A DNA stretch of 64,000 nucleotides from Leucoraja erinacea (lineage: Eukaryota), in NCBI RefSeq assembly GCF_028641065.1, contig NC_073396.1, positions 10,044,001 through 10,108,000 of the forward strand, written 5' to 3'. The translations under genes and the position numbers were made by a program. Numbering within the stretch: the stretch's first letter is position 1; each line of letters opens with the position of its first letter. This document shows, piece after piece, positions 14,941 to 64,000 of this stretch. The notes below the pieces were generated by a model that saw only the letters and a program-made list of their open reading frames with translations, was not told the origin of the DNA and did not search any database.

Positions 14941-15035
14941 CTGAAGAAGGGTCTCGAGCCGAAACGTCACCTATTCCTTTGCTCTAGAGATGCTGCCTGA
15001 CCCACTGAGTTACTCTGGCATTTCGTGTCTATCTT
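14941..15035 (+). mobile_element. Penelope-derived pseudo-LTR repeat with hammerhead core
   Basis: CTGAAGA-AGGGTCTCGAGCC-GAAAC-GTC followed by the family body gagatgctgcctgacccactgagttact. Confidence 0.7.
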
Positions 15036-15253
15036 ATTGAAGTATAGACCTTTATTTAGTCTCCTGCTTTAATCGTAACTGAGATTATATTTTTGGAGAA
15101 CAAGCTTATTTGACAGGTTTAAAGCCACAATAACATGAGTTGAAGGGGGTAGCAGCAAGGAAATGTTATGGCAGTGAAATAAATAAAATTCCACATCTTT
15201 AAAATTGTTACAAAATTAAATGAACATCTACTTCCTTTAGAGTTTGTTCCTAC

Positions 15254-15321
15254 CTCATCCCATTCCTCTGATCTCCCTTTGTGTGTTTTCACTTGGCCAA
15301 TATGTCCCCTTGAACAGTGCC
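15254..15321 (-). CDS. KATNIP: KATNIP candidate exon 2, (R)HCSRGHIGQVKTHKGRSEEWDE
   Basis: tttctttccaaag| ... GAG|gtagga; 68 nt, phase 1 in and phase 0 out, bridging exons 1 and 3. The peptide is poorly conserved, so the call rests on splice signals and phase. Confidence 0.6.
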
Positions 15322-15597
15322 CTTTGGAAAGAAATCAATGTGGCATTAGAGATATGGATTTGTGAGATAGAAAATGCCAATGAGTTTATTATTCACTAAA
15401 AACATGCAAGATAAAAATGATCAGCTAATGACATTATAAAGATTGACGATTTGCTCAACACAAATTGATAGATTCATAGATTAAATGAAGTTAAATAATT
15501 TTTACAGGTCTCCCATTTCAAAAACTCTTTTGCTCCTTCTAATGTTTGCAAATGCAAATAATGCAAGATTGTCCTGTTCAATCAATATTCATCAAGC

Positions 15598-15865
15598 TTA
15601 GTTTAGTTTGGAGACACAGCATGGAAACTGGCCCACGCCAACCAACAATCATCCATAACTCTAACCTACACAGTAGGGACAATTTACAAAGCCAATTAAC
15701 CTACAAACCTCTATGTCTGCGGAGTGAGGGAGAAAATCGAACACTTGCAGGAAATCCATATGGTCACAGGGAAAACGTGCAAACTCCATACAGACAGCAC
15801 CCATAGTCAAGATCAAACCTCAAGTCTCTGGTGCTGTAAAGCAGTAAATCTACTGCTGTGCTGCC
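15598..15865 (-). mobile_element. tRNA-derived V-core SINE (diverged)
   Basis: Family head, core and (aaact)n tail. Confidence 0.7.
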
Positions 15866-15917
15866 CGCAAAAGATGCCTACTTGCAAAAGATATATAATC
15901 AGGACTATCAGCCTGGT

Positions 15918-16232
15918 TAGAAGGGTCTCGACCCGAAACATCACCCATTCATTCTGTCCAGTGATACTGCCTGTCCCCCATGTGTAGGAAAGAACTGCAA
16001 ATGCTGGTTTAAATCGAAAATAAGACACAAAATGCTGGAATAACTCTGCGGGACAGGCAGCATCTCTGGAGAGAAGAAATGGGTGACTTTTCGGGTCGAG
16101 ACCCTTCTTCAGACTGATGTCAGGGGAGTGGGCGGGACAGAGATAGAATGTAGTCGGAGACAATAAGACTGGTAGGAGAACTGGGAAGGGGAGGGGATGG
16201 AGAGAGGGAAAGCAAGGGCTATTTGAAGTTCG
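15918..16232 (-). mobile_element. Penelope 3' end: ORF stop, pseudo-LTR with hammerhead motif, and an inverted partial copy
   Basis: Minus strand reads AAC TTC AAA TAG, a pyrimidine tract, then CTGAAGAAGGGTCTCGACCCGAAAAGTC (16112-16085); the inverted copy is at 15918-15978. Confidence 0.7.
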
Positions 16233-16432
16233 CCAAGAAAACATCACAAGATTGAGGTTGAAAATGTGAGCTTTTGTGATGAGGGAAACAACATTATGGG
16301 GATTGGGATCGGTGGTCCTTGTCACTGACAGGAAATGAATCCAAAAGATCAGCTAGTGGTTGCATCAGAGAGGTTTTGAGTTCTCTAGTTCAATGTAGGA
16401 GCAGTAGCACTGACTGGATTCGTTAGATTAAA

Positions 16433-16737
16433 GAGCGGCACAGTGGTGCAGTTGAAAGAGCTGCTTCCTCACAGTGCCCCGGTTCCAGAGACCCAGGTTC
16501 GATCCTAACCTCAGGTGCTGTTTGTGTGAATTTTGCACGTTCTCCCTATGACCACGTGGGATTCCTCCAGATGCTCTGGTTACTTCCCACATCCAAAGAT
16601 GTGTGGGTTTGTTAATTGGTCTGTGTGACTTGCCCCTAGTGTGCAAGGAGTGGATGGGAAAGTGGGATAACATACAACTAGCGTGAATGGTTGGATGTGG
16701 ACTCAGTGGGCTAAAGGGCCTCTTGCCATGCTGTATA
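16433..16737 (+). mobile_element. tRNA-derived V-core SINE
   Basis: gcggcacagtggtgcag head, V-core and CR1 tail. Confidence 0.8.
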
Positions 16738-17274
16738 AACTGAAGTAAATAAATGCAATAGCTGAAAAAAAGCAGGGCAGAAAATGGGTATCCTGCTATT
16801 GCGATTCATATCTCAAATCCCCAAAGTCGTACAAAGGCACAAGTCAAAAGAATGATGGAATAATCTCAACTTGCCTGGATAAGTGGAGCTCCAGTGACAC
16901 ATTAGAGCTTTAGAAACTATCCCGAACATAGCACTGCATTTGATTCTTACCCTATCCATCAAAACAAACAATCACGCCCGCCACAAGGGAACCACAGCTA
17001 TATGGTGTATTATTTACAAATGATTGCAGTTATTAATCAAGGACACTCGGACAGTCTTCCACCATTTAGAAGGGAATGGGCAAGGCACTTGGGAATACCA
17101 AAATCTGCAAGCACCATTCCCAATCATCTTAAGAATACTTTGCAATGTTGTGAGCAATGCTGACTCTGTCTGCAAAGAAAAAAAGTTTAAACAAGAGTAA
17201 AAACATTCTCTCCATAGATGTTTCAGTATCTTCAGCATCCGCTTTATTTCACACTTCTAGCATCAATGATAAAC

Positions 17275-19080
17275 AAAGTCAAGAGTGCAACCAAAGACAC
17301 AATCTTTAGAGGATCCAAGTTACTGAGGTTAGTGTAGCAGTGTTTGCTGGGAAGAAGCTGTTCTTGAACCTGGTGGTCACAGTATTCAAGCTTTTGTACA
17401 TTCTTCCCAATCGTAGCGATTAAATGACAGCATGGTGATATTTATTAGTTGCTTTTTTGAGGCAGCAGCTGCTATATATCCCTCTGAAGGGAGGCGGGTG
17501 GTGGGAGGTCAGCATCTACGATAGATTGAGCAATGTCTACCATTCTCTGTAGTCTCCTTCCTTTTTTGTGTGTTTGATTTACCCAACTAGGCTGTGAAGC
17601 AATCAGCATGTTCAAAGATAGAAACATAAAGCTGGAGTCAGATTCAGATTCAGATTCAGATTCAACTCAGCGGGTAAGACAGCATCTCTGGAGAAAAGGA
17701 ATATGTGACGTTTCATACGTCTATCTCTCATACACCTGTAGATGTTCGATAGAATATTCACAAACATATTGAATCTCCTCAATCTTCTAAGGAAGTAGAG
17801 ATGTTTCTTTGTGATTGCATTGATGTGCTGGGCCCAGGACAGATCTTCAGAGATATGCACTTAGGAACTTGAAGCTGTTGACTCTCTCTACCACTGTCCT
17901 ATCCATAAAAACAAATGTAGATTCCGGGCTTTAGCTTCCTGAAGTCAACAATCAGTGCCTTGGTCTTACTGACATTGTCAGCAAGATTATTGTTCTATAC
18001 CAATCAGATTTTCAATCTTTTTCCTGTACTCCAGCTCATCATTATTCATTATTCGTCCAACAATGGTGGTATCATGGGCAAATTTAGAGATGGCATTGGA
18101 GCTGTGTCCAGCTGCACAGTCACAGTTATAGAGAGAGTGGAGCAGAGAGAGAGCGCAGAGCCTTGAAGTGCTCCTGTGTTGAAAGTTATCAAGGAGAAAA
18201 TATTGTTGTTCATTCGTATTGATTATGGTGTGCCAATGAGGAAGTCGAGGATGCATAGGGACAAGCTGAGACCCAGTTCTGTGAGTTTGACGACAAGTTT
18301 AGAGGAGATGAGGGCGTTGAATGCCGAGTTGTAGTCGGTGAACAACAATCTGACATAGGTGGCCTTATTGTCTAGGTAATTTAGTGCAGAATGGAAAGCC
18401 AGCGAGAGAGTATCCCCTGTTATCTCTTAAGCCAGTGGGCAAATTGCAGTGAGTCCAGGTCCTTACCAAGCCAGGAGTTGATATTCATCATAACCAGCTT
18501 CTCTTGAAACTTCACTCACTGCAGATGTTAATGTTACTGTTCTATAGTCAGTGATATGCCAACTTATTTTTCTTGGGTACCGGTATTATGGATGCCGTCT
18601 CAAAGCAGGAGGGAGGTCAAAGACTTCAGTGATGAGAGGTTGAAATTGTCTGAAAAAGTCAGGCTAGTCAGTTCATGCAGGTTTTAAGAACATGACCAGG
18701 AATCGTTGCCGTGCGTCGGGGCTGAATGCTTCCCAAGTGTTCATGAAGGATCTTCACAATAAGCCTCAGTGACTGAGATTGCAGCATCGCTGGGGATTAT
18801 GTCGCGTGGGAGGCAACGACTAGGTACTTGGATATTCTCCTTTTTGAAGTAAGCTTTAAAAGCATTGAGTTTGCCCGAGAGTGATGCCTCACTATCACTT
18901 GAGCTACCACTTGGTTCTGCCTTGTACGAAGTTTCGGCATGCAAGCACTGCCACAGTTGCTAAATGCCCAACTCATCCTCCAGTTTAGACTGAAAGTACC
19001 TCTTTGCTTTTCTGATGGTCTTGTCAAGGTCGTACCTGGTCTTCCTATAGGACCCTGCATCACCAAGACCTGATCTTCAA
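17275..19080 (-). mobile_element. Rex1/Babar-type LINE ORF2 relic (~1.8 kb, frameshifted)
   Basis: Peptides HISEDLSWAQHINAITKK..LYFLRRLRRF, LYNCDCAAGHSSNAISKFAHDTTIVG and a DYNSAFN-like motif. Confidence 0.85.
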
Positions 19081-19304
19081 TAGATTACAGACCTCCTGAC
19101 ACCATCAGGTTCAGGAACAGCTGCTACAATCAGGTTTTCGATTCAACCTTGTTTTCTACAACATTCTCCAGGTCCCTTCCATTTACCGTGCCTGTTCTCC
19201 AACCCTCCACTACCAATCACTGACTCCTTCCACTGTCTTTTGTGTATTCAATTGGCAACTGGATCATATGTGATCTAAAGTTCCCAACTTGTCAACTCGC
19301 AAAG

Positions 19305-19567
19305 AGGAAGGGGGAGAGAGCGAGAGAGAGGCGAGTGTGGGGAGAGAGGGATAGGGGGGGGGGGGGGGGGGGGGGGGGAAGAGCGAGAGGGAGGAGCAAG
19401 GGGGGGGAGGGAGCGGGGGGGGGAGAGAGGGGGGGGGAGAGAGGGGGGGGGGGGAGAGAGGGGGGGGGGAGAGAGGGGGGGAGAAGAGAGGGGGGGGGAG
19501 AGAGAGAGGAGGAGGGGGGGGGAGAGAGAGGGGGGGGGGGAGAGAGAGAGGGGGGGAGAGGGGGGGG
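19305..19567 (+). repeat. Polypurine (G/GA)n low-complexity tract in KATNIP intron 1
   Basis: About 260 nt made almost entirely of G and A, with long G runs. Confidence 0.9.
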
Positions 19568-19915
19568 TCGTGCCTGCAGGACACCGATACGTGAAGCAGC
19601 CCCCCCGCCCATGTCCCACTCACGCTCCATGCCGCCGGTCGGGCGCGGGCTCCCCTAGCCTCGGGCCGCCGCCTCCAACTTCCGGCCGCGCTGCCGGTTG
19701 CGCCGGTAACGGGGGCGGGGAGGAGTGGCCATCAGAGCGCGCTTCCGGTCAGAGCAAACCAATCGCGCCGCACCTTCGCTGCCTGGCAACCGGGTAGGGC
19801 GGCCTAGTCTGCAGGGGTCTCCGCGCTCCGGCCCTCGGGCTCCAGTCACCGAGCCCCCAGGCTTCCCTGTGCCCCGGGGGCGTCTCCTGCAGCCGACTTT
19901 GAAGACGCGGAAGGT
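19565..19915. promoter_or_regulatory. CpG-island promoter of KATNIP, probably bidirectional, with RFX X-box, ETS, GC-box and CCAAT motifs
   Basis: CpG-dense. GTTGCGCCGGTAAC at 19697-19710 and GCTGCCTGGCAAC at 19778-19790 are X-box-like; CTTCCGG at ~19679 and ~19742; GGGGCGGGG at 19712-19720; CCAAT at 19759-19763. Confidence 0.8.
19624..19630 (-). CDS. KATNIP: KATNIP coding exon 1 (ATG GAG C)
   Basis: Minus strand reads ggcggcATGGAGC|gtgagt: strong Kozak context and a consensus donor inside a CpG island. Its phase-1 end fits the next exon. Confidence 0.8.
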
Positions 19916-20279
19916 ACAAACCAAAGATACTAGAGGATCTAGTTCAGTAAATGTGATGAAAATGTCTCAAAAAAAGGCTTTAACCTCTAGTATCTTTGGT
20001 ACAAACCCTGGTTGCTGGAGTAACTCAAAGCGGGTCAGGCAACAGCAGCAGCAGCAGCAGCATTATTATCATCATCCCTGAAGAACACGGACATTGCGTG
20101 CTATTTTCGTGATATTTATTTTAGTTGTTTATCTTTTAATATTTTACCTTGTATGTATCGTTAGCTTTTAGAAATGTTTGAATGCTGCACTGGCTGGCTG
20201 ACATTTTTAAATTTCGTTGTACATGGTTCATGTTACAATGACAATAAAGAAACTATTCTATTCTATATATACAAGTGCC

Positions 20280-20810
20280 ATCTGTAGGATGGAACCTCAG
20301 ATGCTGGTTTACACCGATGATAGATACAGGAGGATGCTGGAGTAACTCAGCGGGACAGGCAGCATCTCTGGAGAGAAGGAATGGGCCCAAAACGTCACCC
20401 ATTCCTTCTCTCCAGAGATGCTGCCTGTCCCGCTGAGTTACTCCAGCATTTTGTGTCCATCTTCTGCCAAATCCCATTCTGGGGTACACAAAAAAGCTGG
20501 AGAAACTCAGCGGGGTGCAGCAGCATCTATGGAGCGAAGGAAATAGGCAACGTTTCAGGCCGAAACCCTTCTTCAGACCATAGATTCATTCAGATCATTA
20601 CCCTTCCTTCGCTCCCTAGATGCTGCTGCACCCGCTAAGTTTCTCCAGCTTTTTTTGTGTACCTTCGATTTTCCAGCATCTGCAGTTCCTTCTTAAATCC
20701 CATTCTGAGTATAGGCGCCTTTTTATATAGTGGAGAATCTGAAGAAGGGACCTGCCCATCCATATTCCTGCTGCAGAGACGCTGCCCGACCCGCTGAGTC
20801 TCTCCAGCCC
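20280..20810. repeat. Cluster of inverted Penelope pseudo-LTR repeats
   Basis: Alternating-orientation copies of gagatgctgcctgtcccgctgagttactccagca; hammerhead core on minus at 20576-20549. Confidence 0.8.
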
Positions 20811-23029
20811 TCCTTGTCCTTTTTTCCGAGTTATATTAAGGATTATGTAAACTCAGGTGAAGAAACCAAACAACATCCCCCAGCACTGAAGATGCAACGA
20901 GGAAAGAAACCTGTAACACCTTCGGTTAGATATATGTTATGCTAACTTATTTAAATTATTTCTGGGATCTTCTTTCCCTGTTTTTTGTTTATGTAAGGCT
21001 ATGGCAAATCATACCAACATTCCCAAAGACTGGATTTCGTTTGGATCAAGACAGCACATATTTGTCTTATTAATTAAACAAAACGTTTCAGTGTCCTTAG
21101 AGCAGGAAACCAAGGAAATCTTAATATTTTACACATTGAGCCAGGGCACAAGTTATCCCTTTACAGTATAAACACAAAGCAAATCAAGGGTTATGTGGAG
21201 ATGACAGGAGAATGAGGTTGTGGCGGAAAGATAGATTAGCCATGATTTAATGGTGGAGTATTCTCGATGGCCTACTTCTATGACTTACGAAATGATAAAT
21301 CGAATTTAATGTCACATCAAATCACATCATATCTTCCTAAATTACTACAGAGAAAATAAAAAATCAGAGGTAGGTTCACTGTTCAAATTAAATGAACATT
21401 TTTTCCACTTGCTTTTCAATTCTCTTCATCTCTTCCTGACTTATTTTGCTAAAACCTTTTTTTGAGACATTTTCACCACCTTTACTGAACTAGATCCTCA
21501 CCAAAACCGTTCTCATTTCATGCACAACTGAGAGACCAGACTCACAGCAAAGACTCCAAGACTTCCAGACACACTTCCAGGTCTTTTCTCTTATAACCCT
21601 TCCATTGAGACAGAAAGGACTCCAAGGTCGTGACTGGGAGTTTGATCCGCTGCCTATTCAGCTTGGAGCTGCCATTCACTCAGCACCCTGAACACGTGGA
21701 TGAGTCGAAGGAGGGGATCCCACAAGCTGCTCCCAAGCTCACACTCGATCTCGACACCTCCATCTTCTGCCAGGGGTTTGTTCAGCTGAACAAACGGCAT
21801 CCTAAACCCCTCCGCCGGGCGCATCCGCCGCTCACGGTGTAGCGGGCAAACAGGCGTGCGGATCAAGAATCTTATCACACTGGTATTCAAACACTTAAAT
21901 AGGAGCGGCATAGGACAATATACTTGCAAACGGGATTAGTGCAGATGAACAAAAAGATGAATGTGATGGGCAGGAGGGCCTGTTTGTAGCTGTACAACGC
22001 TCTGACTATATGCAGCATACCAGAAGTAAACAGAAGACCTACTGTTGAGACTAAAGACGATACTCTGGTCCAAACAAAGAGGGTTTCTTTTACCGCTTCT
22101 AAATGCAATCTGAGCCTCTCTTAAATGAAATGAATTGTGACCACCGCAAACAGTACAAGTCTGTTTTCTGCAAACTTTTCCATGAAACTACACGCCAGCT
22201 TCGCAAAGGCAAAGATGTCTGCAGCATCTTTAACAATTTGTGCAGGATGCATGACACTCTCGGACTATTTGGAAAACGTAGCATTCTCAGCGGTTTGTCT
22301 GCAATGTCACCAAAAGGTTAAAAAACATTTATGATTGATCTTTGTGTCCAGACCACTTGTTATTGTTAGAATAGGTTTCGCATTTGTGGAACAATTTTGA
22401 AAGAAAATAGATTAATAATGCCCTCAAAGAATTTAAATCACCTTTAGTTGTGTAGAAACTTTGGAATGGAATGGGATACTTTATTGTCACATGTGACAAG
22501 GCACAGTGAAATTCTTTGCTTGCATGCCCTAGGTATGCAAATAGTCGCCCATAAAGGGCGTTTACAGTACCCGTGCGCCAGGTCGGCCTTTGTTCTTCCC
22601 CATCCCCCCTCGCTCACGGCAGTCCCCCCCACGCCTTGTCCTCCATTGTCCATTGTTCTTTCCCCTCCCTCCTGGTGGTCCCCCATGCCATGTCCTCATC
22701 GTTCATTGTTCTTCCCCCTCCCTCACGGCAGTTCCCCACGCTGACAAAGTTACAAAGTACCCCCGCCAGCTCCTCCTTTGTTCTCTCCCCCCAACTCCCA
22801 TTCCCCACCAAAGAACCAGCCTCCACCGCCGAGGCAGAGAATTCCACAGACTCACAACTCTCTGTGTGAAAAAGTGTTTCCTCATCTCCGTTCCAAATGG
22901 CTTACCCCTTATTCTTAAGATGTATAAGATATATTGTTGAATGTATAAAGTTGGTATCTCATGAGTAAGCATGTAAAGGACAGTGGTTATCTAATGAACA
23001 GCTTCTCTTTCATCTCCCCTCTCTATTTC

Positions 23030-23378
23030 ATCTACACTCCCCAATACTGCACATAAGGGGCAATTTATAGAAGTCAATTAATCTACTAGTCCACGCAAAA
23101 GATCATAAAGTGCTGAATTAACTCAAGGGGTCAGGTAGCATCTCTAGATTACATGAACCCAGATAATGCTTTGGGTTGGGACCCTTCTTCAGACTAACAT
23201 CTGCAGCTTGATATTTCTTCCAATACACATATCATTGTAACGTGGGAGAAGAGCGGAGAACCTCGGGGAAATCCAGGCAATCACAAGGAGAACGTGCAGA
23301 CTCCACACAGACCGCACTGGAAGTCAGAACTGAACTGAAGACTGGAGCTAGGAGGCAGCAGCTCTACTAGCTGCACTG
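23030..23378 (-). mobile_element. Diverged tRNA-SINE with a nested Penelope-derived repeat at ~23100-23215
   Basis: SINE head and core split by a gacccttcttcagac-containing repeat. Confidence 0.6.
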
Positions 23379-23489
23379 GTTTGTTGTTCCCTGTTGCCTT
23401 GATTAGTTGGGGCTTGGATGGCTCATAGTTTGCGTGTTTTACTGATGCAGCTAATAGTCACATTGAATAGAATGTCTGCTAAACATATT

Positions 23490-24025
23490 CATTGTACAGT
23501 AAAGAGCATATTGATGGGTTGCATCATGGCCTGGTTTGGCAACTCAAACGCCCAGGAACAAAGAAGATTGCAAAAAGTGGTGAACAGTACGGGCACTGAC
23601 CTCCCCACCATGCTTCACAAACACAGCCAGCATCATCAGAGACGCACACCATCCTGGCCAGACTCACGCCACCCTGACCATGCCCTCATTTCACCCCTGC
23701 CATCATGAAGAAGGTATAGGAGCCTGAAAATTAATGTTCAGGTTCAGGAGCAGCTTCTTCCCTACAATTACCAAACTATTAAACACTACAACCTTCACTT
23801 AGGCTCTGAACTACATAGACATGGTGACATTGTTGTTGACTTTGCACTACTATTGTCTATTTATTTGTCTGCTTGTTTATTTTTATATATATACTGAACT
23901 TTTTGTATTGGTTATTATGGGTTTTACAGAATAATGTGTTTAACATGTCTGTTGTGCTGCTACAAGTAAAAATGTTATTGTTCTGTTTCAGGACATATTA
24001 CAATAAAAAACTCTTGACTCGTGAC
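23490..24025 (+). mobile_element. Rex1/Babar LINE 3' relic
   Basis: CTVKSILMGCIMAWFGNSNAQEQRRLQKVV peptide; tail acaataaa...cttgact. Confidence 0.8.
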
Positions 24026-24844
24026 TTTGCACTTAGCCAGAGGTGACAAGTCTTCAAAAATAGTAGGGAAGCCACTACATCAAACTAGTAAAGGTGCCGT
24101 GAGTGGGATGAAAATATGCAATGAACATTTATCCACTTGAGCCCATCAATGTTTCAGGTAGATTATGGCTTATCTCTACTCACCCATAATCTTTAATACT
24201 CTTGCCACACAAAAATCTATAAAGTTTAGATTTGACATTTTGAATTGGGTTAGTTTCAGGAGCTTATTTGAGGAAGAGCTTCAGATTTCCATTATCTCTT
24301 GCATGAATAGTTGCAAGGGGCGTCACACCTGACCAAGCTTGATCTTATTTTATGCTACCTTCTATCAGGTCATGCAATATCATTCTATCTATCCTACCTT
24401 TGTTTAATCATCTTAAATATTTCTATTATATTAGCTCACAGCTTTATACACTCAGGCAGGAAATCTAAGCCACTTTCTGAAATTACAAAAACATTTTTGT
24501 AAAAAAAACATTTTGTAATTTAACCCTTTAAGGCTCCTTATCACCAGGGAATCAGTATATCTTCCACTCTAAAGTTATCCCATTCAGGTTATGTGTACTC
24601 ACACCTACTTTTCGTCCCATTTAAATGATACTATTTTTTTTAAAACCTTGGTTCTTTTGAAAGGATGGATAAAGACAGCGAAAGCAAAGACAAAGAGGAT
24701 AACACACTTTCCCTCTTGAGGAAGACTACAGAATCATGGGACACGCAGAAGCGCCCTGTATTTATAGAATAATTCAGGATGAAGCTGACAAGCTAATGGA
24801 AATGTTGAATCGTCTTAAAGAGCCTAATATACATTTGGACTTTT

Positions 24845-25076
24845 CTTCTTGCGAATGAAACATAAACCAAAGGAATAGTTAGATCTCAAGCCGGGTGTTG
24901 AGCAGCCAGGTTGTTGTCTCTGCATCAATGTCTGCCAGGCCCTGAGCTCCATTTGGTGGGTGGTAGAGCGAGCACCCAGAGATGACATGGTTGGCTGTCT
25001 GCCGTTCTGCTCCGCATTCAAAGGCTGGGCTCTGGCAGAGTCCCCAACTCCACATGCTGGCATTGAAACGCCCACT
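24845..25076 (-). mobile_element. 5'-truncated Vingi/Ingi-like LINE with TSD
   Basis: C-terminal peptide GRFNASMWSWGLCQSPAFECGAERQTANHVISGCSLY...WLLNTRLEI* (zinc-knuckle region); tail cgcaagaag; TSD TTTGGACTTTT at 24834-24844 and 25077-25087. Confidence 0.75.
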
Positions 25077-25144
25077 TTTGGACTTTTGATACACTGTGAT
25101 TCATTGCAGCTGTCGCACCGTTGAACAATAAGCTCATTATTGTG

Positions 25145-37737: not shown

Positions 37738-37809
37738 GATTCCAGTAAATCAAACCACTACATCCGACACAACACTTGCAATCATGCATTCCCGTCATGC
37801 CTATCCCTC

Positions 37810-52593: not shown

Positions 52594-52891
52594 GGCAGCA
52601 CGGTGGCACAGCAAAGAGTTGCAGCACCAGAGACCCGGATTCGATCCTGACTACGGGTACTAGTCTGTACTAAGTTTGTACGTTCTCCCCCTGACCGCAT
52701 GGGTTTTCCCCGGGTGCTCTAGTTTCCTTCCAAACTCTAAAGACGTAGAGGTTTGTAGGTTAATTGGCTTTGTAAATTGTAAATTGTCCTTCATGGGTAG
52801 GGTAGTGCCAGTGTACTGGGAACGTTGGTCGGCGTGGGCTCGGTGGGCTGAAGGGCCTGTTTCCACGCTGTATCTCTAAACTAAACTAAAC
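52594..52891 (+). mobile_element. tRNA-derived V-core SINE
   Basis: Near-consensus copy with (aaact)n tail. Confidence 0.9.
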
Positions 52892-55641
52892 ATCTAGACA
52901 GGTACATGGATAGGATAGGTTTAGAGGGATATGGAGCAAACAAGTTGTAATATGGTCCCTAGTGTGTGTAGCTTAGTATACGGGTTATTGATGGTTGGCA
53001 CGGGCTTGCTGGAGGACCTGTTTCTGTGCTGTATCTCTATTGTCTAAAGTCTATAGATATTTCAGAATAAAAAAAGTAAAATGATCCTGTTCTTTTGAGT
53101 TCACATTACCATCAATGGCAGTTTTATGGTTAAGGTTCATCTTATAATTTACTGTCTATTTCTATGTGTTTCTGTTGCCTGCTTTGAGAAACTTACTTTT
53201 GTTGTGAATTCATTAATCCACATGAAGATAAATAATAAAAGGCATTGAGATCTACATTAAATATGGAATGCAATCCTCCAGCAAAAGCATAAAATAGATA
53301 TTCATGTGGGTGATTTAAATTCTTTATCTCTAAACTCGATTAACTACCTAATCTGAAAATGTGATTTCCTTTTAAAACCTAGATTTCATAACAATCACTA
53401 ATATTGATTCATTCCTAACCAAAGATCAACATAAATCATACAGGAAACTTCCAGCGGGTCAGGCAGCATCTCTGGAGAAATGTATGAAGAAAGGTTTCGA
53501 CCCAAAACCTCATCTACTCCTTTTCTCGAGAGATGCTACCTGACCCGCTGAGTTACTCAAGCATTTTGTGTCTATCTTCAGTGTAAACCAGAGTCTGCAG
53601 TTCCTTCCTCCACAGGGAAATTCCAGCAATTCTTTCCTTTGCCAAAAGCGCTGTAAGTATTAAAAGAAAAATCTAGAGTCAAATTCGACTCTGACTACGG
53701 GTGCTGTCTGTACGGAGTTTGTACGTTCTCCCTGTGACCACGTGGGTTTTCTCCGGGTGCTCAGGTTTCCTCCCACATTCCAATGGCATCCAATTGGCTT
53801 CTGAAAGTTGCCCCTAGAATGTAGAATGCAAAAATGGGATGACATAGAACCAGTGTGACTGGGTGGTCGATGGTCGGCTTTGACTCGTTGTTGGTTAAAA
53901 TCGCTGCGTTTGGCTTTCTTCATTATTTTTTTTCATGGTTTGCACACAACGCTCCACCTGCCCGTTGCTCTGTGGATATATGGGACTTGAGGTGACATGC
54001 GTTGAAGGGCTTGTTTCCATGCTGTATCTCTAAATATAAATATATCCCCAAACTAAACATTATCAGGGCAATGTGAGCAGGGAAATGTTTTGAGAATAGC
54101 AGGTTCGAGAAAGAGGGTAAAGTAACCATCATTTGACAAAATAAATGCTTAATGGATAGACACGGAACTTATTTTAAGATGGATTAAGAGTCAATTATTC
54201 ATTACAACAAGTGATAAAATAATGTGTTTCTAAAGAGGACTATTAAATTGTTTAATTCACTTCACGGAATCGTATGAGTAGCCTCCCAATTTTCTACGGA
54301 TGTTAACTCACTTCAGGATAATGAGTTAATTTGATGTTTGAAATTTATTCATTGAAGCAAAATAAAATCCTTTGGTACACAAATATTACAAAATAACATA
54401 CATCCAAGCATCAGCAATTTGCCTCTAAGTAGTCATTTGGCCTCATGCATTTCTCTGAAACACTGCTTGAACTGTATCTTTCATTTATCAGCTTGGTTTC
54501 ATTGTTTATTTTTGTATTGAGAAATGCAATTATGGATTTAAAATGATATCTGCTTTTAAATTTAATTTCACCCCAAATAAATTTGTTTTCAAGACAAAGA
54601 TTTTCATTTAAACCATAAGAGACATTTTGGACATATTTGTTATTTAATCTGGATTGAATGATTAAGATGTCTTTACCGATCAATCAAAATAAGTATGTTC
54701 AATGTATTTCATGGTCCTTTATGATTATAGATGGAGTCTATTCGGCCTATTGAGTGCATACTGGCTCACAGAATAATTCTATGCCACGTTAAATTTCCCT
54801 GTTACTTTTCCCATCAATTCTCTCCAGATTCATCCAACCACATACACTAGGGGCAATTTACATTGGCCAATCAACCTACCACCTACACGACTTTGGGAAG
54901 GGAACTGGGAAACTGGAGGTAAGTGGGAGGGGGAGAGGAGAGGTGGAGAGTTCTATCTAAAAAATATTAACATCGAAAAAAAAGTTGTTTTAAAAAATCA
55001 AAATGATAAAATCAATCGAGAACACAGACAACTTACAAACAATTATAGAATTAAACTGCACGCAGAGGAGATATGTTTATCATGCCAACGTGTTCTGCAT
55101 TGACATTGTAGGCCAACTTGGTCTCATCTGTGGCTCCCAGAGTTAGAACGTTTGGACTGATGATGATCACAATATGGAAGCAATACAACGGTCTTTCTTT
55201 CCCTGTCAAATCTGTGGTTTAGAAGCCCATAGGGATCACTAGGATCTTGGACCATCCATCAGTTCTGATCTACTGCTTCATGCACATAATGGCGAGGACT
55301 CTCATCGCAATGGGTACTTGCTGTTCGATGTTGTGTGATGTCTGATGGGGGAGTGAGCTGAGAGATTCAGAGGGTTGTATCTGTCAGTTTATGCTGGAAT
55401 CTAGTTTTTCACAATGCCCAGAGGTTTAGGACTTGATTTAGTTTCATGGCTGAATGGCGATGTGAACCGAAATCCACAGAGAACACAATTCGGGACAAAC
55501 TGCTGTATTTGTTTCTATATTTATCTTCCTCTTTGGCTTGGGCAGCCAGTAGGGAGTAAGGATTATTGCCTCTGCTCTGTTTTGTTTGTTGCAAGGTAGC
55601 TGTTGGGACTGATGTGGAGCCGACAAACTCTGCCACAGATG

Positions 55642-55955
55642 AGGCACGGTGGCGCAATGGTTGGGTTACTGCCTTACAGCGCCAGAGAACCGGGTTTGAT
55701 CCTGCCTATGGGTGCTGTCTGTACAGAGTTTGTACCTTCGCCCCGTGACCGCGAGGGCTTTCCCCGAGTGCTCTGGTTTCCTCCCACACTCCAAAGACGT
55801 ACAGGTTTGTAGGTTAATTGGCTATGGTAAAGATTGTAAAATGTCCCTACTGTGTATAGGAAAGTATTAGTGTACGGGGATCGCTGGTTGCCGCGGACTC
55901 AGTGGGGCCGAAGGGCCTGTTTCCACGTTGTATCTCTAAATACTAAACTAAACTA
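55642..55955 (+). mobile_element. tRNA-derived V-core SINE
   Basis: Near-consensus copy. Confidence 0.9.
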
Positions 55956-56324
55956 AGCAGTCCTCTGTCACTGCTGACATTCTTGCGATCTCTCACTCAG
56001 ACGATGACTTGAACTAATAGGCATCAGTAAAACTATAAACACAAGGAACTGTAAACACAAAGAAGGGTCCTGATCTGAAATATTGCCTGCCCATTCCCTC
56101 CAGAGATGCTGCCTGATTTGTTGAGTTCCTTCAGCACTTTGTGTTGTATATAACAGATGCCAGTGCCTGGGTGGTGTTACCATTAGATTTTGTGTTTGTT
56201 CTTTTTTTATGAAACAAGGTGTTGGTTACATAAGGAGGTGCTCCAAGCATTTGGTGAAGAAGTGCTTTCCAGTGGAGTTAGCTCCCCCTACACCTTCATT
56301 GCTAATGTCACATATTCAGGGAAT

Positions 56325-56941
56325 TTAGTTTAGTTTTAGTTTAGTTTAGTTTAATTTAGAGATACAGTGTGGAAACAGGCTCTTCAGCCCACCGATTCCG
56401 CACCGACCAGCAAGTTCTATCCTAGACACTTGGGACAATTTACAGAAGCGAATGAACCTACAAACTGGCATGACTTTGGAAGGAGGAAACCGGAGCACCC
56501 AGAGAAAACCCACGTGGTCACAGGGAGATCATACAAACTCCATTCAGGCAGCACCCGTAGTCGGAATCGAACCTGGATCTCTGGCACTGTAAAAGCCCCG
56601 TCCCACTGTACGAGTTCATTCAAGAGTTCTCCTGAGCTTGCCCTGATTCGAACTCGGAGATTTACGGTAATGGACGCTCGTCGGTACTCGGGGCTCTTGT
56701 GGACATTTTTCAACATGTTGAAAAATCTTCACGCGTCTTCCCGAGCTTACCACGTTTCACGAGTACCTGCCGTTAGCGTTACGAGACGCTAAGAGACGTC
56801 CCCGGGCACCGACGTACCCGCTACGTACATTCTACGTGCTTCCACGAGTTTGATTTTTTTTTTTAAACTCGGGAGAGCTCTTGAATTAACTCGTACAGTA
56901 GGACAGGGCTTTAAGGCAGCATCTCTACTGCTGTGTCACCC
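56325..56941 (-). mobile_element. tRNA-SINE split by a MITE
   Basis: The SINE sequence ctggcactgtaa|ggcagca is rejoined when 56593-56914 is removed. Confidence 0.8.
56593..56911. mobile_element. PIF/Harbinger-type MITE (319 bp)
   Basis: ~44-bp TIRs starting AAGCCC(C/T)GTCC with 5 mismatches; 3-bp TAA TSD at 56590-56592 and 56912-56914; central 22-bp perfect palindrome at 56705-56726. Confidence 0.85.
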
Positions 56942-56949
56942 TTGGCCTT

Positions 56950-57780
56950 TTATTGGGCGGCGGATATTAAGGCGGCGCGACTCTCGTCAGCAGCGGCCTC
57001 TGCAGCCCGTCTGCGTTTTTATTATTTTTTGTCTATGTTTTTATGTAGTTTTTGTTATTTTTTTGTTGGGGGGTGTGTGGGGGGGGGGGGGGGGTGGGGT
57101 AGGGAGGGGGTAACTTTTAATCTCTCCCTGCACTGGAGACCCGACTTTTTCTTTGTCGGGTCTCCGTTGTCGTTGGGGCTGCAACGAGGAGCGGCCTCCA
57201 ACAGGAGAAGACCGGGGGCTCTGGTGCCGACGACTCACCTCACCGTTGCGGAGCTGGCCGAGTCCGGAGCGGGTGGAGCGGTGGTGGAGCGCTGCTGCTG
57301 CTGCGGCCTGACCTCCGGAGATTCGGAGGCTGCAACTGCGGGTCTAGTGGACCGCGGCACCGGGAGCCCGCGGGTCACTGGAGGAAGACTTCTCCCGCCC
57401 GAGTTGCGGGATCGAAGAGCTCCTGGAGCGGGGCCTTACAGCACCGCCCCGCGCGGCTTGGAATGGCTGCGGGACTCTGCGAGCGCACGCCGGGGGCTCC
57501 AACACCAAGACCCGGTGTGCGACCTTGCACCACCCGGCGTGGCTTTAATGGCCGCGGGACAATCACCATCGCCAGCCGGGGGCTTTGACTTTGACTCGGG
57601 GGGGGGAGTGCAGTGGAGAGATAAGTTTTTTTTGGCCTTCCATCACAGCAATGTGATGGATGTTTATGTAAATTATGTTGTGTCTTGGGTCTATTTGTTT
57701 GTAATGTATGGCTGCAGAAACGTCATTTCGTTTGGACCTCAAGGGGTCCAAATGACAAATAAATTGAATCTTGAATCTTA
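56950..57780 (+). mobile_element. GC-rich non-autonomous retroposon with a Rex/Babar-type hairpin tail
   Basis: T-rich stretch plus G-run, CpG-rich body, gccttccatcacag core, tail catttcgtttggacctcaaggggtccaaatgacaaataaa(ttgaatc)n. Confidence 0.75.
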
Positions 57781-58559
57781 TTGTCCGAACAGCATGGTAA
57801 ATTACTTGCCATAACCAGCACCGCCAGCCGGTACTATGGGAGGGGAATATAAATGTCCAAAAAGCATTTACTTGTCAGTGATCATCTAAGTGGCAAGGAA
57901 TTCACACCATAGTAAATATAACAGCAAACTCCAGAATCATCTTGTCCAAATTACCACATCTTATTTCATTAGGTAAGGATTCACAATAACATAAATAAAT
58001 AAGCTTTCACTGTAATTCTGAATATTATTTCATTATTCACAACATGACTTGCATAAGTTGTGATTATAAGTAATATTATCTGACATTCTACACAGCTACA
58101 CAAATGTGTGTATTAATTAAGGGGATGAGTGACATTTGCAATTCAGTTATTGAAGTCTAAAATTCTATTGAATACACCTCACACAATGGTAAATCAGATA
58201 GGTGCATGCATATTTTGTATGTTTCATTTGGCTCTCCTCTCTCCATCAGTGAAATCCAGCTACAGATCCCTCTGTTTTGTGGGTGAATGGCCTGAATTGA
58301 ATCTCTTTGAAGATTATTTACTCGGAGTGCTTTCCACATTGCCGCAGCGGCAATTAATTTTATTGCTTGTCTCCCACAACTGTTTTGTTGATTTACTGCC
58401 TGAGATGGTGTTTCGTTTTGGAGCTTAGTATCTGAAATATCAATGACCGTCCCATGGGACAAGTTTCCGGCTCGAGTCTTTGATGAAGGCATTAGCAGAA
58501 GAGGACTTTGTTAAAGTAGATTGGACTGAATGTAGCTGGCCATAGGTCCATGGTTGCCC

Positions 58560-59030
58560 TTGTTGCATGAGCTATCAACACTAATAACCTTTTCAATGGG
58601 AATGCAAGCTGGAGCTCCTCGATTCCATCATTTTTTAGCTCTTCCAAGAATCTCCAGGTAACTGATGAGGCAACTGTGGCCTTTTGAATTACTCCTGAAA
58701 AGAAAAGTGGTAATTTATTTGAACACAGAGAATTATGTGCCTGGCTTCTGTTTGACACAAAATGCAAATTGTTGCAAGTCACCAAGACAGTTGTCATATA
58801 CTTTAAATCACGAGGCGGCCATTTATACCCAATCCTATTTCATACCAAGGCTATTACTCCCATGTGTAATCCTATTAAACTGGAGGCATAACAATGTCCG
58901 TGCTTTCACAAATGCACCAAAACGAAGAGACCATTGGCATTCTGAAACAGCGTTTCCACACTTAGAATGATTCAGAGGCAGCGACACGATTCTAGACTGG
59001 AGAGATGTTTCATATAGTTGTCGAAGGAAT
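58560..59030 (+). pseudogene. Decayed Harbinger (HARBI1-like) DDE transposase
   Basis: ETIGILKQRF at 58927-58956 and QIVASHQDSCH at ~58766 resemble the family motifs ERTIG.LK.RF and V.A..PGS.HD; many disruptions. Confidence 0.55.
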
Positions 59031-60115
59031 CCTTCACAGCATAGTAACTGAAAGAGAGAGTGTAGGAACGAACTGCAGATGCTGGTTTACACCAATGATA
59101 GACAAAAAATGCCAGAGTAACTCAGCAGGACAAGCAGCATCTCTGGAGAGAAGGAATGGGTGATATTCGGGTCAAGACTCTTATTCAGACCGAATCATTT
59201 CAGACCTGAAACGTCACCCATTACTTCTCTCCAGAGATGCTGCCTGTCCCGCTGAGTTACTCCAGCTTTGTGTGTCTATCTTCTGGTTCAGTCGCACTGA
59301 TCAAGGAAGCACATCAATGTGTGGAAAGGAACTGTAGATGCTGGTTTGTACCAAAGATAAACACAAAATGCTGGAGTAACTCAGCAGGTCAGGCAGCATC
59401 TCTGTACACTAGTGCTGTACTACACATGAGGGACAATTTACAGAAGCCAATTAACCTACAAAGCTGCATGTCTTTGGAATGTGGGAGGATACCGGAGCAC
59501 CCGGGGGAAACCCACGTGGTTTAAGGCGAGGGGGGGAAATTTCTTAGGAATCTGAGGGTCAACATTTTTACACAAAGGGTGGTAGGTATATGGAACGAGC
59601 TGCCAGGGGAGATAGTTCAAACAGGTACTATCACAACGTTTAAAAAACATTTGGAAGGGACATGAATAAGATGTTTTGAAGGATATGGAGCAAATGCAAG
59701 CAGGTGGGTCTAGTGTAGATGGGACATGTGGGTTGGCATGGGCAAGTTGGGCTGAAGGGCCTAGTTCCATGCTGTATAACTCTGTGACTATTATATGCTT
59801 CTTTCACAAATAACAAGAATTCCAGCACCACAGCAATTTCCAATAGGAATAGCATCCCATCCACCAGAACCCACTACCTTCCATCACCAAGTCAATTTTG
59901 AATCAAATTAGTTAGCTTCACCTTCTGGACCAGCCCACCATGTTTGGTACCTTATGAAATATTTTCCTAAGGTCCATATTGACGGGGGTCCACTGCCCCA
60001 CCTTCTTCGATCTTCATGGTAATCTCCTTAAAAACCTCAATCAAATTAGTGAAGAAAGATTTTCCCTGTATAATGCCATGCTGGCTAACTCTGATCATCT
60101 CCTATCTTGCTAAAT

Positions 60116-60165
60116 GGGGTCAAGGAAAGAGCGTTCACGTTGTGGCTATGTTTCCACCAATCTTT
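60116..60165 (+). ncRNA. Minimal CPEB3/HDV-like ribozyme motif (degenerate)
   Basis: P1 GGGGUC/GGCUAU, P2 AAAGA/UCUUU, P3 GCG/UGU, L3 UUCACGU, J1/4 GU, J4/2 C-CAA. Confidence 0.6.
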
Positions 60166-60272
60166 ATACCTCCATCCACAAGAAGCACAAAAAACGACAA
60201 GACAGACACCATTGTGTGTTCAGCTCTGGCTGAACAACTTCTAATCTTGTTTGTGGACTCGATAAGAAGAAG
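60116..60272 (+). mobile_element. Short non-autonomous retroposon (Vingi-type tail) starting with an HDV-like ribozyme fold
   Basis: TSD ATCTTGC(T/C)AAAT at 60104-60115 and 60273-60284; tail tggactcgataagaagaag; inserted in an old CR1 fragment. Confidence 0.75.
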
Positions 60273-60409
60273 ATCTTGCCAAATGTATATAAATCCTATC
60301 CCTTTAGATCTCCAATAATAGCATGTAAGGGTGATGGGCCTGTAATAACATGGCTCGCCCCTTCTTAAACAAAAGAACAAAAATTCCTAAATGAAAGAAT
60401 GGATCGACC

Positions 60410-60830
60410 TGGCTTATAGTCACTGGAATTTAGCAGGATGAGAGGGAATATTATAGAAATATATAAAATTCTTAAGGGATTGGACAGGCTAGATGCAGGA
60501 AAAATATTCCTGATGTTGGGGAGTCCAGAACCAGAGGTCACAGTTTAAGAATAAGGGGTAGGCCATTTAGCCTGAGATGAGGAAAAACATTTTCACCCAG
60601 AGTTGTGAATCTGTGGAATTCTCTGCCACAGAAGGCAGTGGAGGCCAATTCACTGGATGTTTTCAAGAGAGAGTTAGATATAGCTCTTAGGGCTAACGGA
60701 ATCAAGGGGTATGGGGAGAAAGCAGGAACAGGGTACTGATTTTGGATGATCAGCCATGATCATATTGAATGGCAGTATTGGCTCGAAGGGCTGAATGGCC
60801 TACTCCTCCACCTATTTTCTATGTTTCTAA
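60410..60830 (+). mobile_element. Young CR1 3' fragment
   Basis: Encodes ESRTRGHSLRIRG..FTQ.VVNLWNSLPQ; tail tatgtttcta. Confidence 0.9.
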
Positions 60831-61539
60831 CAACATGAATAACCTCTAGTCTTCTGGCTCCTCATCAGTAACAAACAAAGTTGCAGATATCTATCTCCAC
60901 AGGGGCTCCAATAATCTCCTTGGTAATCTAGGACAGACTTCATCCGAACCTGGAGACTTATCCATTATTATGCATTCCATAGTCTTTGACTACTGATTAA
61001 CGATGAATTACATACATGCCAGTTCAAAGCTTTTATTTTGTGTTCTATAAACTTTAGGTGCATTCAATTGGAAGAGAGATGATGTTTTTGCTTTAATATT
61101 AGTTTCAACACAAAGCAGAGGTTGAATGGGGAAGACAAGCTAATTATCTTCACCATGTTTTGGTGACATTTAGAAAAGGTCAAAGAAAAATCCCCATACC
61201 TATAAAATATACCGGTCTTGTAGCTCAATCACATAACACAGTGTTTTTTTAAGCATCTTTCAATTGAAAATTGATTTTTATTTTTTCCCCCTCACAGAAC
61301 AATATAACAATGTTTCTCATCATTTTCAAAATTCCACAGGGCAATGTTGATATGTTGCGCCCCTTGTACTAGTTACCTCTTGTACTAGTTACCCCTTGTA
61401 CTAGTTGCCCCTTGTGGATGCACGGAATGACATTGCTCCCCCCTCCATTGCGTTTTTTCAAGCATTGTGTGAGGAAGCAGACTGAAATATCAAAAGGGAC
61501 CATTAATGAGTGACAATAAACCAGAAACAATTTTTTCAA

Positions 61540-61935
61540 AAGGTGCAGGAGTAGGCCATTCGGCCCTTCGAGCCAGCATCGCCTTTCAATATGATCATGT
61601 CTGATCATCCAAAATCAGTACCCCGTTCCTGCGTTCTCCCCATATCCCTTGATTCCGTTAGCCCTAAGAACTAAATCTAACTCTCTTTTGAAAACGTCCA
61701 GTGAATTGGCCTCCACTGCCTTCTGTGGCAGAGAATTCCACAGATTCACAACTCTCTGGGTGAAAAAGTTTTTCGTCATCTCGGTCCTAAATGGCTTACC
61801 CCTTATTCTTAAACTGTGACCTCTGGTTCTGGACTCCCCCAACATCGGGAACATTTTTCCTGCATCTAGCAAGTCCAATCTGTTAAGAATCGTATATGTT
61901 TCTATAAGATCCAGAATTTTATATGTTTCTATATG
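61540..61935 (-). mobile_element. Young CR1 3' fragment, inverted relative to 60410-60830
   Basis: ORF 61615-61941 encodes GESRTRGHSLRIRGKPFRTEMTKNFFTQRVVNLWNSLPQKAVEA. Confidence 0.9.
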
Positions 61936-62334
61936 TCGCATGATTGCAGGCCAGAACTACAGCAGGAACTACAGGCCAGGAAGTGATTGGGAAACGGTTA
62001 CCCCCTTACCCTACCTACCTCCCCCACATAAAAATACTAAGAAATACTAAAAAACATACTTTTAAACAGACTAAAAATAAAAAAAGATGGAAAAACAAAC
62101 AGAATGTAGGCAGAGGCTGCCATCATGCGGCGCCCAACTTGGATTTGGTGCTATAATTCTGGAGCAACGCTATGACTGTACGCTATGTTCTATGACTGTA
62201 CGCTACGGGTTGTGTTTATGGCTCATGAAGATAAGGGTTCCTTTGTATTTCCTGACACCATCTCCAGAGCAATTATAACCCTAGAATCTTTGGCAACTGT
62301 AAAGCTTTAGTATCCAGTAATATTCACTGGATTC

Positions 62335-62592
62335 TCGGCTTCGATCCGGTTTCGATCATGTCAACGGGTGTTGTTTGTATGTTATCCCTGTGACCTGTGT
62401 GCGATTTCTCCAGCTGCTCAGGTTTCCTCGCACACTCCAAAAATTCACAGGTTTGTAAGTGAATTGGCTTCGGTAAAGTTGTAAATTGTCCCCAGTGTGT
62501 GGGATAATGCTAGTGTACAGGGTGAGCGCTGGTCGGCTCGGGTTCGGTGGGCTGAAGGATCTGTATCCACACTGTATCTCAAGTCTAAAGTC
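62335..62592 (+). mobile_element. tRNA-derived V-core SINE (diverged)
   Basis: Family core and tail. Confidence 0.7.
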
Positions 62593-62897
62593 ACGTACAG
62601 CTCAGCAAATTAACAACCAGCCCTGCGTAGTGCAAGACTGAGCCAATGTTTAAGTATGAGTGGATAATTAGCATGTAACATCCTGAAATCTGCCATCATA
62701 CTCCTCACAACTTATTAAAGATTTTTTATCCTCTTCAGACTTCAAAATTATGCCCTGCAGACCTCGTCATTATTACATATTGTGCTTGCAGTTTATAATC
62801 TGATCACCATTCCCCTCTACTCTCTGATTTTTCTCCCTTTGCTAATTTAATATCCATGCTGCCCACAACCCTTTTATGCCATTAGTTGTAATGTTCT

Positions 62898-63081
62898 TTT
62901 TCTTCTTCTTTTCGTGTCCATCTTGTTACAAATGTTGACCTCTCTGTCATCGTCCATCCTGAAAAAGACGCAAGCTTCCGACAAGTCATCACTTGTCGCA
63001 GTAGATGATGGTGGTCGCAGAATTAGTCCAGGATACTTCCAGTTCCCAGCCCCACAACGTGGACGCTTTTGTTATGGGGCT
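62898..63081 (-). mobile_element. Short non-autonomous retroposon (Vingi-type tail) starting with an HDV-like ribozyme fold
   Basis: TSD GTT(G/A)TAATGTTCT at 62885-62897 and 63082-63094; tail tggacacgaaaagaagaag. Confidence 0.8.
63017..63081 (-). ncRNA. CPEB3/HDV-like ribozyme motif
   Basis: AGCCCC-AUAA-CAAAA-GCG-UCCACGU-UGU-GGGGCU-GG-[P4]-C-UAA-UUCUGC; candidate catalytic C at 63026. Confidence 0.7.
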
Positions 63082-63229
63082 GTTATAATGTTCTAACATG
63101 TTTATTTACTAATACTTTATTAAAGCTTTCCGTAATATATGTTACATGTTGCTCTCTGAAATACTTCATAAGAACACGATCAACTTAGTTAAATGCGATT
63201 TGCTGTTACAGAAATCAATACCATCATCT

Positions 63230-63355
63230 CTGAAGAAGGGCCTCAACCCGAAACGTCATCCAATCCTTCTCTCCAGAGATGCTGCCTGTCCCGCTAAGTT
63301 ACTCCAGCTTTTTGTGTCTATCTTCGGTTTAAACCAGCATCTGCAGTTTCATCTA
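63230..63355 (+). mobile_element. Penelope-derived pseudo-LTR repeat with an intact hammerhead core
   Basis: CTGAAGA-AGGGCCTCAACCC-GAAAC-GTC at 63230-63257, followed by the family body. Confidence 0.7.
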
Positions 63356-64000
63356 ACGCACTATCATCTCTTAATTCCTGTTCAAGTGACAATTAATTTT
63401 GTCCCAATTATGGTCTCAAGAACTCACCCCACCCCTGACCTTAGCTCAGTTTACTTTTCTTCCAATTATTGAACAGGGTGTAACACTTCTCAACCGTTAG
63501 CAGCCTGGAGTTCTTCCTCCCTTGGGAATACCGAATGATCGTGGCACATCCTCCTGTATTTTTGTCCTCTCTTGATTTTGGCTCATCCTCAGTAACGTAG
63601 GATGTATCAATGGTTCAAACGTTTACTGGTTCAATGGTACTTTATTTATCACGTGTACAATGAAATTCATTTTTGTAACAGTTCAGTACAAATATCACTA
63701 TATCTAAGCATTTAGATACAGTACCTTAGATAAGCATCTCAGATACAGTACAAATATGTTTCGTGGTAGTGGTACATTAAGACAGTACACACCGTCGCCA
63801 GTTTGGCACCATTTTCAAGTCCCAGTCGTTGTAAGTGCAGAGTTTGCAAGTCCTGCGAGTGACTTTTCTATGTACTATATAACCGTTTAAAAACCTCAGA
63901 TTCATTTAGATTTGGACAGGTGATATTTCGAGTCGAGACCCTACTTCAGGTCTACCTAAAGCAAGACTAACCTTTCCCTGTTGAAATCTCATCCATTGTG

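Follow-up and report, generated by a model that had tools for sequence, protein, structure and literature searches.

A minimal hammerhead ribozyme motif recurs throughout a stretch of 64,000 nucleotides from the genome of the skate Leucoraja erinacea (contig NC_073396.1, positions 10,044,001 to 10,108,000; the whole stretch is called the window here), and the question arises which element has dispersed it and whether the ribozyme has any part in shaping the copies. The original prediction, made from the letters of the window, had attributed the motif to a non-autonomous family related to Penelope-like elements (PLEs) or retrozymes that would have seeded introns with potential cleavage sites. 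Our analysis identifies the motif as the head of a repeat of about 130 bp. This unit, composed of the minimal hammerhead and a tail, forms the terminal repeat in autonomous Neptune-type PLEs, and most of its copies begin at the 5' edge of the ribozyme and not at its predicted cut site. As an end segment of such elements, the repeat has probably been multiplied for the most part as reverse transcripts of the start of the transcript, which now seem to decay without function.

Positions within the repeat are numbered from C3 of the hammerhead (C3 = 0), with the predicted cut after +27. A profile of the repeat gives 43 matches in the window, one of them an overlap artefact (Table 1), and 14 copies fit the motif within at most six substitutions, in agreement with the claim of more than a dozen. 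All seven copies named previously are present at their positions, 25590 being in fact 25591, but most of them are damaged and hardly deserve to be called best preserved. A strict descriptor, comprising both core boxes, stem II, the palindromic helix III and UH, is passed in the window by the copies at 63230 and 20576 alone, and the copy at 14941 is one of three among the 43 matches to pass a looser, full-motif descriptor. In 1.464 Mb, consisting of the window and fetched DNA, there are 62 strict matches, nearly all from the hammerhead repeat family, and none in each of two shuffles; by extrapolation, about 90,000 strict motifs are expected genome-wide. Sampling of 78 stretches of 10 kb at round coordinates (780 kb) yielded 355 family matches, i.e., 455 per Mb, which corresponds to about 1.0 million copies genome-wide (bootstrap 0.83-1.18 million) and, as a sampling estimate, to about 4.3% of the bases of the genome.

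The parent element was found by a genome search (2.19 Gb) with the copy at 16112 (best 40 of 3,409 candidates; 30 loci fetched), since at the 30 fetched loci the DNA upstream of the repeat is the end of a GIY-YIG open reading frame (ORF), truncated at many different points. A genome-wide protein search gave 128,014 first-look candidates. At one locus, L083, an open frame of 838 amino acids contains reverse transcriptase (RT) motifs, a CX4CxxC linker and a GIY-YIG endonuclease (Pfam RVT_1, E 5e-6; GIY-YIG, E 9e-4), with YIDD and YIGET motifs present. The linker precedes the endonuclease (EN) and fits the CX2-5CxxC criterion for Neptune or Nematis (PMC8557442). Because the same hammerhead and tail occur both after the ORF stop and before the ORF start, the repeat is what makes the two ends of the element redundant. 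Every structural feature tested places the element among the EN-containing (EN+) PLEs, and its assignment to Neptune follows from these features of the sequence. A Penelope-like origin and the anatomy of a minimal type I hammerhead, as had been predicted, are borne out.

In 5' copies of the repeat, the ATG of the ORF lies at +163. Thirty ORF-start loci comprise 13 partial tandems, 3 with part of the untranslated region (UTR), 6 that begin, within unique flank, at the hammerhead edge, 1 behind another short copy, and 7 that begin within the tail. Among the 23 ORF-start loci having a hammerhead, 13 are thus preceded by an ORF end and UTR in the manner of partial-tandem pseudo-long terminal repeats (pLTRs), and 6, as the short copies do, begin at the front edge of the ribozyme. 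The autonomous elements fall into at least two subfamilies, A and B, with 76-80% identity between them; B is young, its copies being 93-98% identical to L083. In the ORF of subfamily B, as seen at two further loci (L117 and L128, about 350-1450), the N-terminal region carries minisatellite arrays that are long, variable, and rich in C and that encode proline-rich repeats.

Within the window, the motif at 16112 had been said to follow a Penelope-like ORF end (NFK*), which is true, although merely the last 4 codons are present; at other loci, this type of ORF end belongs to the GIY-YIG domain. For the 16112 copy, an extended match upstream was discarded, as the copy itself was in the training set of the profile. 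Several GIY-YIG relics had also been proposed for the window, of which one degenerate relic stands. It was detected by unmasked tblastn (masked tblastn gave none), with a protein E of 0.039 for its piece at 9959-9768 and DNA E values of 1e-4 and 2.5e-5, the second piece lying at 10222-10166. A Pfam search of the decayed 297-amino-acid frame P0001 gave no match.

How the copies end is most informative about how they were made. For 642 family matches, 3' ends concentrate at +90..104 (215) and at +119..127 (230), two preferred ends about 28 nt apart that match an optional tail of 30-40 bp, and 3 fall at +23..31. Neighbouring copies are oriented head-to-head in 228 cases versus 14 tail-to-tail. 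Profile starts of 414 solo copies lie at -7..0 in 204 cases versus 11 at +25..32; according to a test of upstream homology, part of the -7..0 peak reflects subfamilies with differing UTRs. Unique upstream flanks are present in 128 of 197 anchored solo copies and the other 69 extend upstream by smoothly graded lengths from 34 to more than 400 nt. The element's own bases are retained in 130 short copies at 75% for -1, 72% for -2, 61% for -3, 39% for -4, and 38% for -5, and at background level beyond. Target-site duplications of at least 10 bp (10-17 bp) border 19 of 90 well-scoring short copies and none of 90 controls, and twelve of the junctions fall at 0 to -2; in the window, the short copy with C3 at 14941 is bordered by a 14-bp duplication (14919-14932 and 15035-15048) and that at 63230 by one of 10 bp (63220-63229 and 63360-63369). 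Base retention, duplications, and unique flanks together argue that the short copies are separate insertions which start at the ribozyme's front edge, and the inserts neither begin nor end at the predicted cut site.

How cleavage-defined ends look is shown by a second repeat of the window (63080-62890, minus strand, about 190 bp; 1,421 first-look candidates in the genome), which serves as a contrast case. Its copies begin at the first G of a hepatitis delta virus (HDV)-type ribozyme closely resembling the mammalian CPEB3 ribozyme. Against Rfam RF00622, the window copy scores 27.9 bits and 8 of 9 relatives (L264-L272) score 26.9-38.7 bits, two of them above the gathering score of 35. This repeat may be a SINE-like (short interspersed element-like) element and a mobile relative of the CPEB3 ribozyme; a single literature search for such a CPEB3-like mobile HDV-type repeat found nothing.

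For the hammerhead repeat, a start-of-transcript origin is inferred because its 5' edge fits core promoter consensi at exact spacing. When the A at -3 is taken as +1, a subfamily A copy agrees with the initiator (Inr) at 6/6, the motif ten element (MTE) at 9/12, and the downstream promoter element (DPE) at 5/6 positions, and subfamily B copies agree at 6/6, 8/12, and 5/6 (consensi from PMC4581360). Among 1,094,914 background positions, the combination reaches the A level once and the B level eight times. PLEs are known to possess internal promoters (PMC2377424; PMC3846280). In the mechanism that we propose, RNA polymerase II would start at the A three bases before C3, inside an Inr, and the RT would prime inside the tail, as was shown in vitro for an Anolis element. 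Priming in the 5' copy of the terminal repeat would lead to run-off at the RNA end after 100-130 nt and so to a short copy, run-off with snap-back would yield head-to-head pairs, and priming in the 3' copy would give ordinary 5'-truncated copies, the reverse transcripts being inserted by the element's own RT/endonuclease. The hammerhead would be constrained in master elements only, where cutting would need a partner copy and probably protein, and it would not shape the inserted DNA.

More tentatively, the segment may be dually coding, that is, a polymerase II core promoter as DNA and a latent ribozyme as RNA, and primed products resembling strong-stop DNA may have left about a million promoter-plus-primer stubs, amounting to about 4% of the genome. 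In the corresponding layout, which we regard as a possibility of the same modest order, the Inr would lie just before the core, the MTE over stem II and GAAA, and the DPE over the cut site. A precedent for one 5' segment serving as DNA promoter and RNA ribozyme is Pr77/L1TcRz of the Trypanosoma element L1Tc (PMC3383444), which differs in that its ribozyme is of the HDV type, its cut makes the 5' end, and it belongs to another retroelement class. No relevant literature was found on a promoter-hammerhead overlap in PLEs.

Several observations weigh against an origin of the copies at a transcript start in a Neptune-type element. The matches to MTE and DPE are in several positions forced by the hammerhead core itself, and the thresholds for the promoter match were set post hoc, after the sequence had been seen. 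No excess of G, as copying of the cap might leave, exists at -4 (13% in the 130 short copies), and the duplication junctions are spread over 0 to -9. In four RNA runs of related organisms, no pile-up of read starts or ends occurs at the repeat, which is covered on both strands at a depth in the thousands, and passive transcription of a million copies would hide a start. The 13 partial tandems among the 23 ORF-start loci with a hammerhead would need read-through or a template jump, the Pfam scores of the L083 RT and GIY-YIG domains are below the curated cut-offs, and the Penelope element of D. virilis starts about 120 nt upstream of its hammerhead, with an intron that ends at helix I (PMC4209133; PMC2377424).

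The main rival to a transcript start retains the same element but explains the edge as a stop or fold-back site of the RT, at which the complementary DNA is halted or snaps back, owing either to a short palindrome with its centre at -1 or to the edge of an RNA fold bound by protein. Such a palindrome is visible and coincides perfectly with several head-to-head junctions, the palindromes described at inverted pLTR junctions have been read as self-priming (PMC3846280), and a cap-G signature is lacking. However, most copies with this edge are solo and have unique flanks and duplications, the modal retention drops between -3 and -4, inside an arm of the palindrome, and 69 of the 197 anchored copies pass the site unhindered, and we consider a stall or fold-back rather unlikely. 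Far less probable still is that the edge is a splice acceptor, a pyrimidine tract followed by CAG, as in D. virilis Penelope, with short copies derived from spliced RNA. The upstream UTR groups are without exception rich in pyrimidines, CAG precedes -1 in most of them, and the D. virilis intron end maps to helix I, but no exon sequence is shared upstream of the short copies, the duplications abut the edge within a few bases, and one UTR group has CGG in place of CAG.

Had the motif been spread by a non-autonomous family of the retrozyme type, cleaving itself as dimers and leaving working cut sites in introns, as originally envisaged, a lineage and an arrangement of its own would be expected. 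In five clusters, each of which holds both short and ORF- or UTR-linked copies of like divergence, there is no short-only lineage, and the short copies are therefore best seen as by-products of each autonomous subfamily. Tandem pairs, too, are nearly absent, as one same-strand pair within 5 kb occurs among 53 strict motifs in the 1.464 Mb (arrays elsewhere in the genome are possible). A separate family of this kind is contradicted by both findings. One locus (L043:5058-5200) contains three head-to-tail units of a 42-bp hammerhead segment, the first two with broken cores, and might represent the seed of a retrozyme-like array.

The core itself is well conserved among subfamilies. None of its 13 columns varies between the four subfamily modes, as opposed to 17 of 60 tail columns, and divergence is lower in non-CpG core columns than in tail columns (0.060 vs 0.088, p 0.003), a difference to which A-richness and anchoring on the core contribute. 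All four modes keep the CUGANGA, GAAA, and UH boxes, the unpaired base after A9, the G10.1-C11.1 pair, and the palindromic helix III, and 47 of 398 matches keep the full motif. This conservation fits a constraint on master elements. After insertion, the core decays: among 200 copies, changes have reached 22-33% at G12, C15.2, G16.2, and C11.1 and 20-25% at tail CpGs, i.e., core CpGs decay like tail CpGs, as under neutrality. The claimed maintenance of pairing among stem II variants (U-A versus U-G) holds in so far as the change is real, but it is one-sided: 89.7% of cells are paired in 21 related copies, and covariation does not exceed that of shuffles.

Helix I, the length of which the original prediction had not mentioned, has 2 bp in the mode and in 35 of the 62 strict matches and 4 bp in one, short of the 4-5 bp of minimal PLE hammerheads, and helix II has 4 bp. 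Five single copies fold no better than their shuffles do (z from -0.9 to 0.43). For the active dimer, predicted energies are -7.3, +0.5, and +0.7 kcal/mol versus -28.8, -12.3, and -12.6 for the best two-strand folds, which places it 13-21 kcal/mol above its best rivals; dimer cleavage of hammerheads is covered in a review (PMC6765202). For subfamilies A and B, folding predicts that positions +28..+38, which comprise helix I's 3' strand and what follows it, pair back with the core and stem II; such an off-fold would have to be remodelled before the ribozyme could cleave. Hammerhead covariance models were not among 20 Rfam matches at E up to 5, and Rfam matches of the microRNA type were rejected as inverted (head-to-head) repeat pairs. 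Among the 15 best of 126 back-joints in RNA, none was of unit length, poly(A) and single-cell libraries being ill suited for this purpose.

The behaviour of intronic copies likewise bears on the retrozyme-like family. In ten genes, nine with spectrin repeats and KATNIP (630 kb, 251 copies), 80 solo copies are sense and 75 antisense, and intact full motifs number 16 sense versus 11 antisense. Two control repeats show no strand bias either, and the sensitivity of the test in this genome may therefore be low. Single-cell reads, the orientation of which is uncalibrated, fall antisense to the hammerhead about 2-6 times more often than sense (L110:104-235; window 16088, 20557, and 20659), in contrast to the unbiased genomic copies. 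KATNIP runs on the minus strand, as its DUF4457 exons 12-27 kb to the left of the window indicate, and the copy at 16112 is therefore in sense orientation, as had been stated; its placement in intron 1 is less firm, intron 1 or 2 being compatible, as a search of the window for KATNIP exon 2 did not locate it and gave one weak candidate. In this copy, C15.2 is mutated and the ACGT palindrome is lost. With no strand bias, neutral CpG decay, and a defective sense copy in KATNIP, the idea that introns were seeded with working cleavage sites is not supported, and despite the invariant core, the retained full motifs, and the antisense reads, we regard a self-cleaving retrozyme-like family as very improbable.

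Table 1. Copies of the hammerhead repeat and other features located in the window.
Feature	Position	Strand	Basis or remarks
All 43 family matches, span	3156..63949	both	profile search
5'-truncated PLE copy, subfamily A	15985..16230	-	final 4 codons of endonuclease ORF, pyrimidine-rich UTR, hammerhead (C3 at 16112), full tail
Short copy, hammerhead and short tail	14933..15034	+	C3 at 14941, intact core, one stem II mismatch
Short copy, hammerhead and long tail	63230..63359	+	strict descriptor passed
Head-to-head pair, young subfamily B	20475..20694	both	minus arm (C3 20576) strict-positive; plus arm begins at about +30
Head-to-head pair, subfamily A tails	20285..20466	both	neither arm with intact core
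Copy with upstream UTR of a further subfamily	25586..25685	+	G12 and palindrome mutated
Short copy in AT-rich flank, start -2	32519..32622	+	A15.1 mutated
Short copy, start -3	52383..52492	-	copy named at 52489; core boxes intact, G10.1-C11.1 pair broken
Head-to-head pair, degenerate	39253..39469	both	profile search
Head-to-head pair, degenerate	59063..59288	both	profile search
GIY-YIG endonuclease relic, degenerate, two pieces split by another repeat	9768..10222	-	weak matches
Candidate end of KATNIP first coding exon	19624..19630	-	ATG plus 4 nt, GT donor, in CpG island
Candidate KATNIP exon 3	12001..12092	-	peptide motifs

Comparison with known systems places the skate hammerhead at the short-helix-I extreme of the minimal PLE hammerheads. 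With those of metazoan PLEs (Cervera and de la Pena, 2014; PMC4209133), it shares the type I core in the pLTR, the extra unpaired base after A9, the G10.1-C11.1 pair, the palindromic 15.2-16.2, mostly solitary copies from truncated elements, and opposite-strand pairs; it differs in its helix I of 2 bp, as in a D. virilis variant, and its helix II of 4 bp. About 4,000 minimal motifs were counted in coelacanth and about 9,000 in Xenopus (PMC4209133), and the skate family is far more abundant with about 1.0 million matches and about 90,000 strict motifs, although the descriptors differ. PLEs are listed in all vertebrate lineages (PMC4350176). Searches for a hammerhead family of skate or shark PLEs retrieved nothing relevant; the family may already be catalogued in Repbase or Dfam, or in the supplementary material to PMC4209133 and to the bioRxiv preprint on non-LTR retrozymes.

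As in Neptune-clade EN+ PLEs (Craig et al., 2021; PMC8557442; Arkhipova et al., 2013; PMC3846280), RT and a zinc-finger-like linker are followed by GIY-YIG, and partial tandems, inverted 5' copies, an optional tail, and duplications near 10 bp occur. In contrast to these elements, skate insertions are dominated by a discrete unit of 100-130 bp from the hammerhead edge, and the skate ORF, of putative Neptune type, has a long proline-rich N-terminal part. For Anolis PAc (Poseidon; Frangieh et al., 2024; PMC11167929), internal priming, an uncleaved RNA template, and a protein-assisted ribozyme have been described, in which the skate element would resemble it. In PAc, the tail is bounded by two internal sites at which the RT starts, as would be the case in the skate element, and RNA-seq gives no ends at the cut site in either; PAc belongs to another clade and its ORF starts in stem II, whereas the skate ORF starts 163 nt after C3. 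Non-LTR retrozymes (bioRxiv 10.64898/2026.07.22.740005) likewise have a type I hammerhead derived from pLTRs, and dispersed monomers exist, but they are defined by tandem hammerhead units. In the skate, intact tandem pairs are nearly absent and a short-only lineage is lacking, so that the repeat failed both the tandem-unit and the independent-lineage test for a non-LTR retrozyme.

Further features of the window concern its genes and other repeats. Near 19630, 12050, 9470, and 5490 lie candidate upstream exons of KATNIP, found with peptide motifs, and the assignment of 19624..19630 as the end of its first coding exon presumes the human exon structure. No KATNIP splice joints were among the joints shown by the four RNA runs for window positions 2001-22000. 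For the gene right of the CpG island, a family search with GTF3C1 matched elsewhere on the contig. Two minisatellites, at 41416-42023 and 42368-42776, have repeat units of about 50 and 48 bp, respectively. Another very abundant repeat (7371-7500, 28726-28975, 55658-55960, and others) resembles the HE1-type SINE of cartilaginous fish, and 3' ends of long interspersed elements (LINEs) are present, for example as a 218-bp inverted pair at 60599-60816 and 61538-61755.

As originally described, the motif belongs to a very abundant repeat of a known class, the intronic copies of which look inert. PLE hammerheads are already known, and the proposed overlap of promoter and ribozyme is the new, testable part. 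If dual coding were true, each stub would potentially be able to launch further copies, and the abundance of solitary PLE hammerheads as well as their conserved cores despite weak cleavage would be explained. If the promoter reading is true, it would offer a testable answer to the open question of what purpose PLE hammerheads serve, given that they cleave weakly and that cleavage is dispensable in vitro. The young subfamily B and the several hundred thousand insertion junctions of the wider family are good material for studying the PLE replication cycle.

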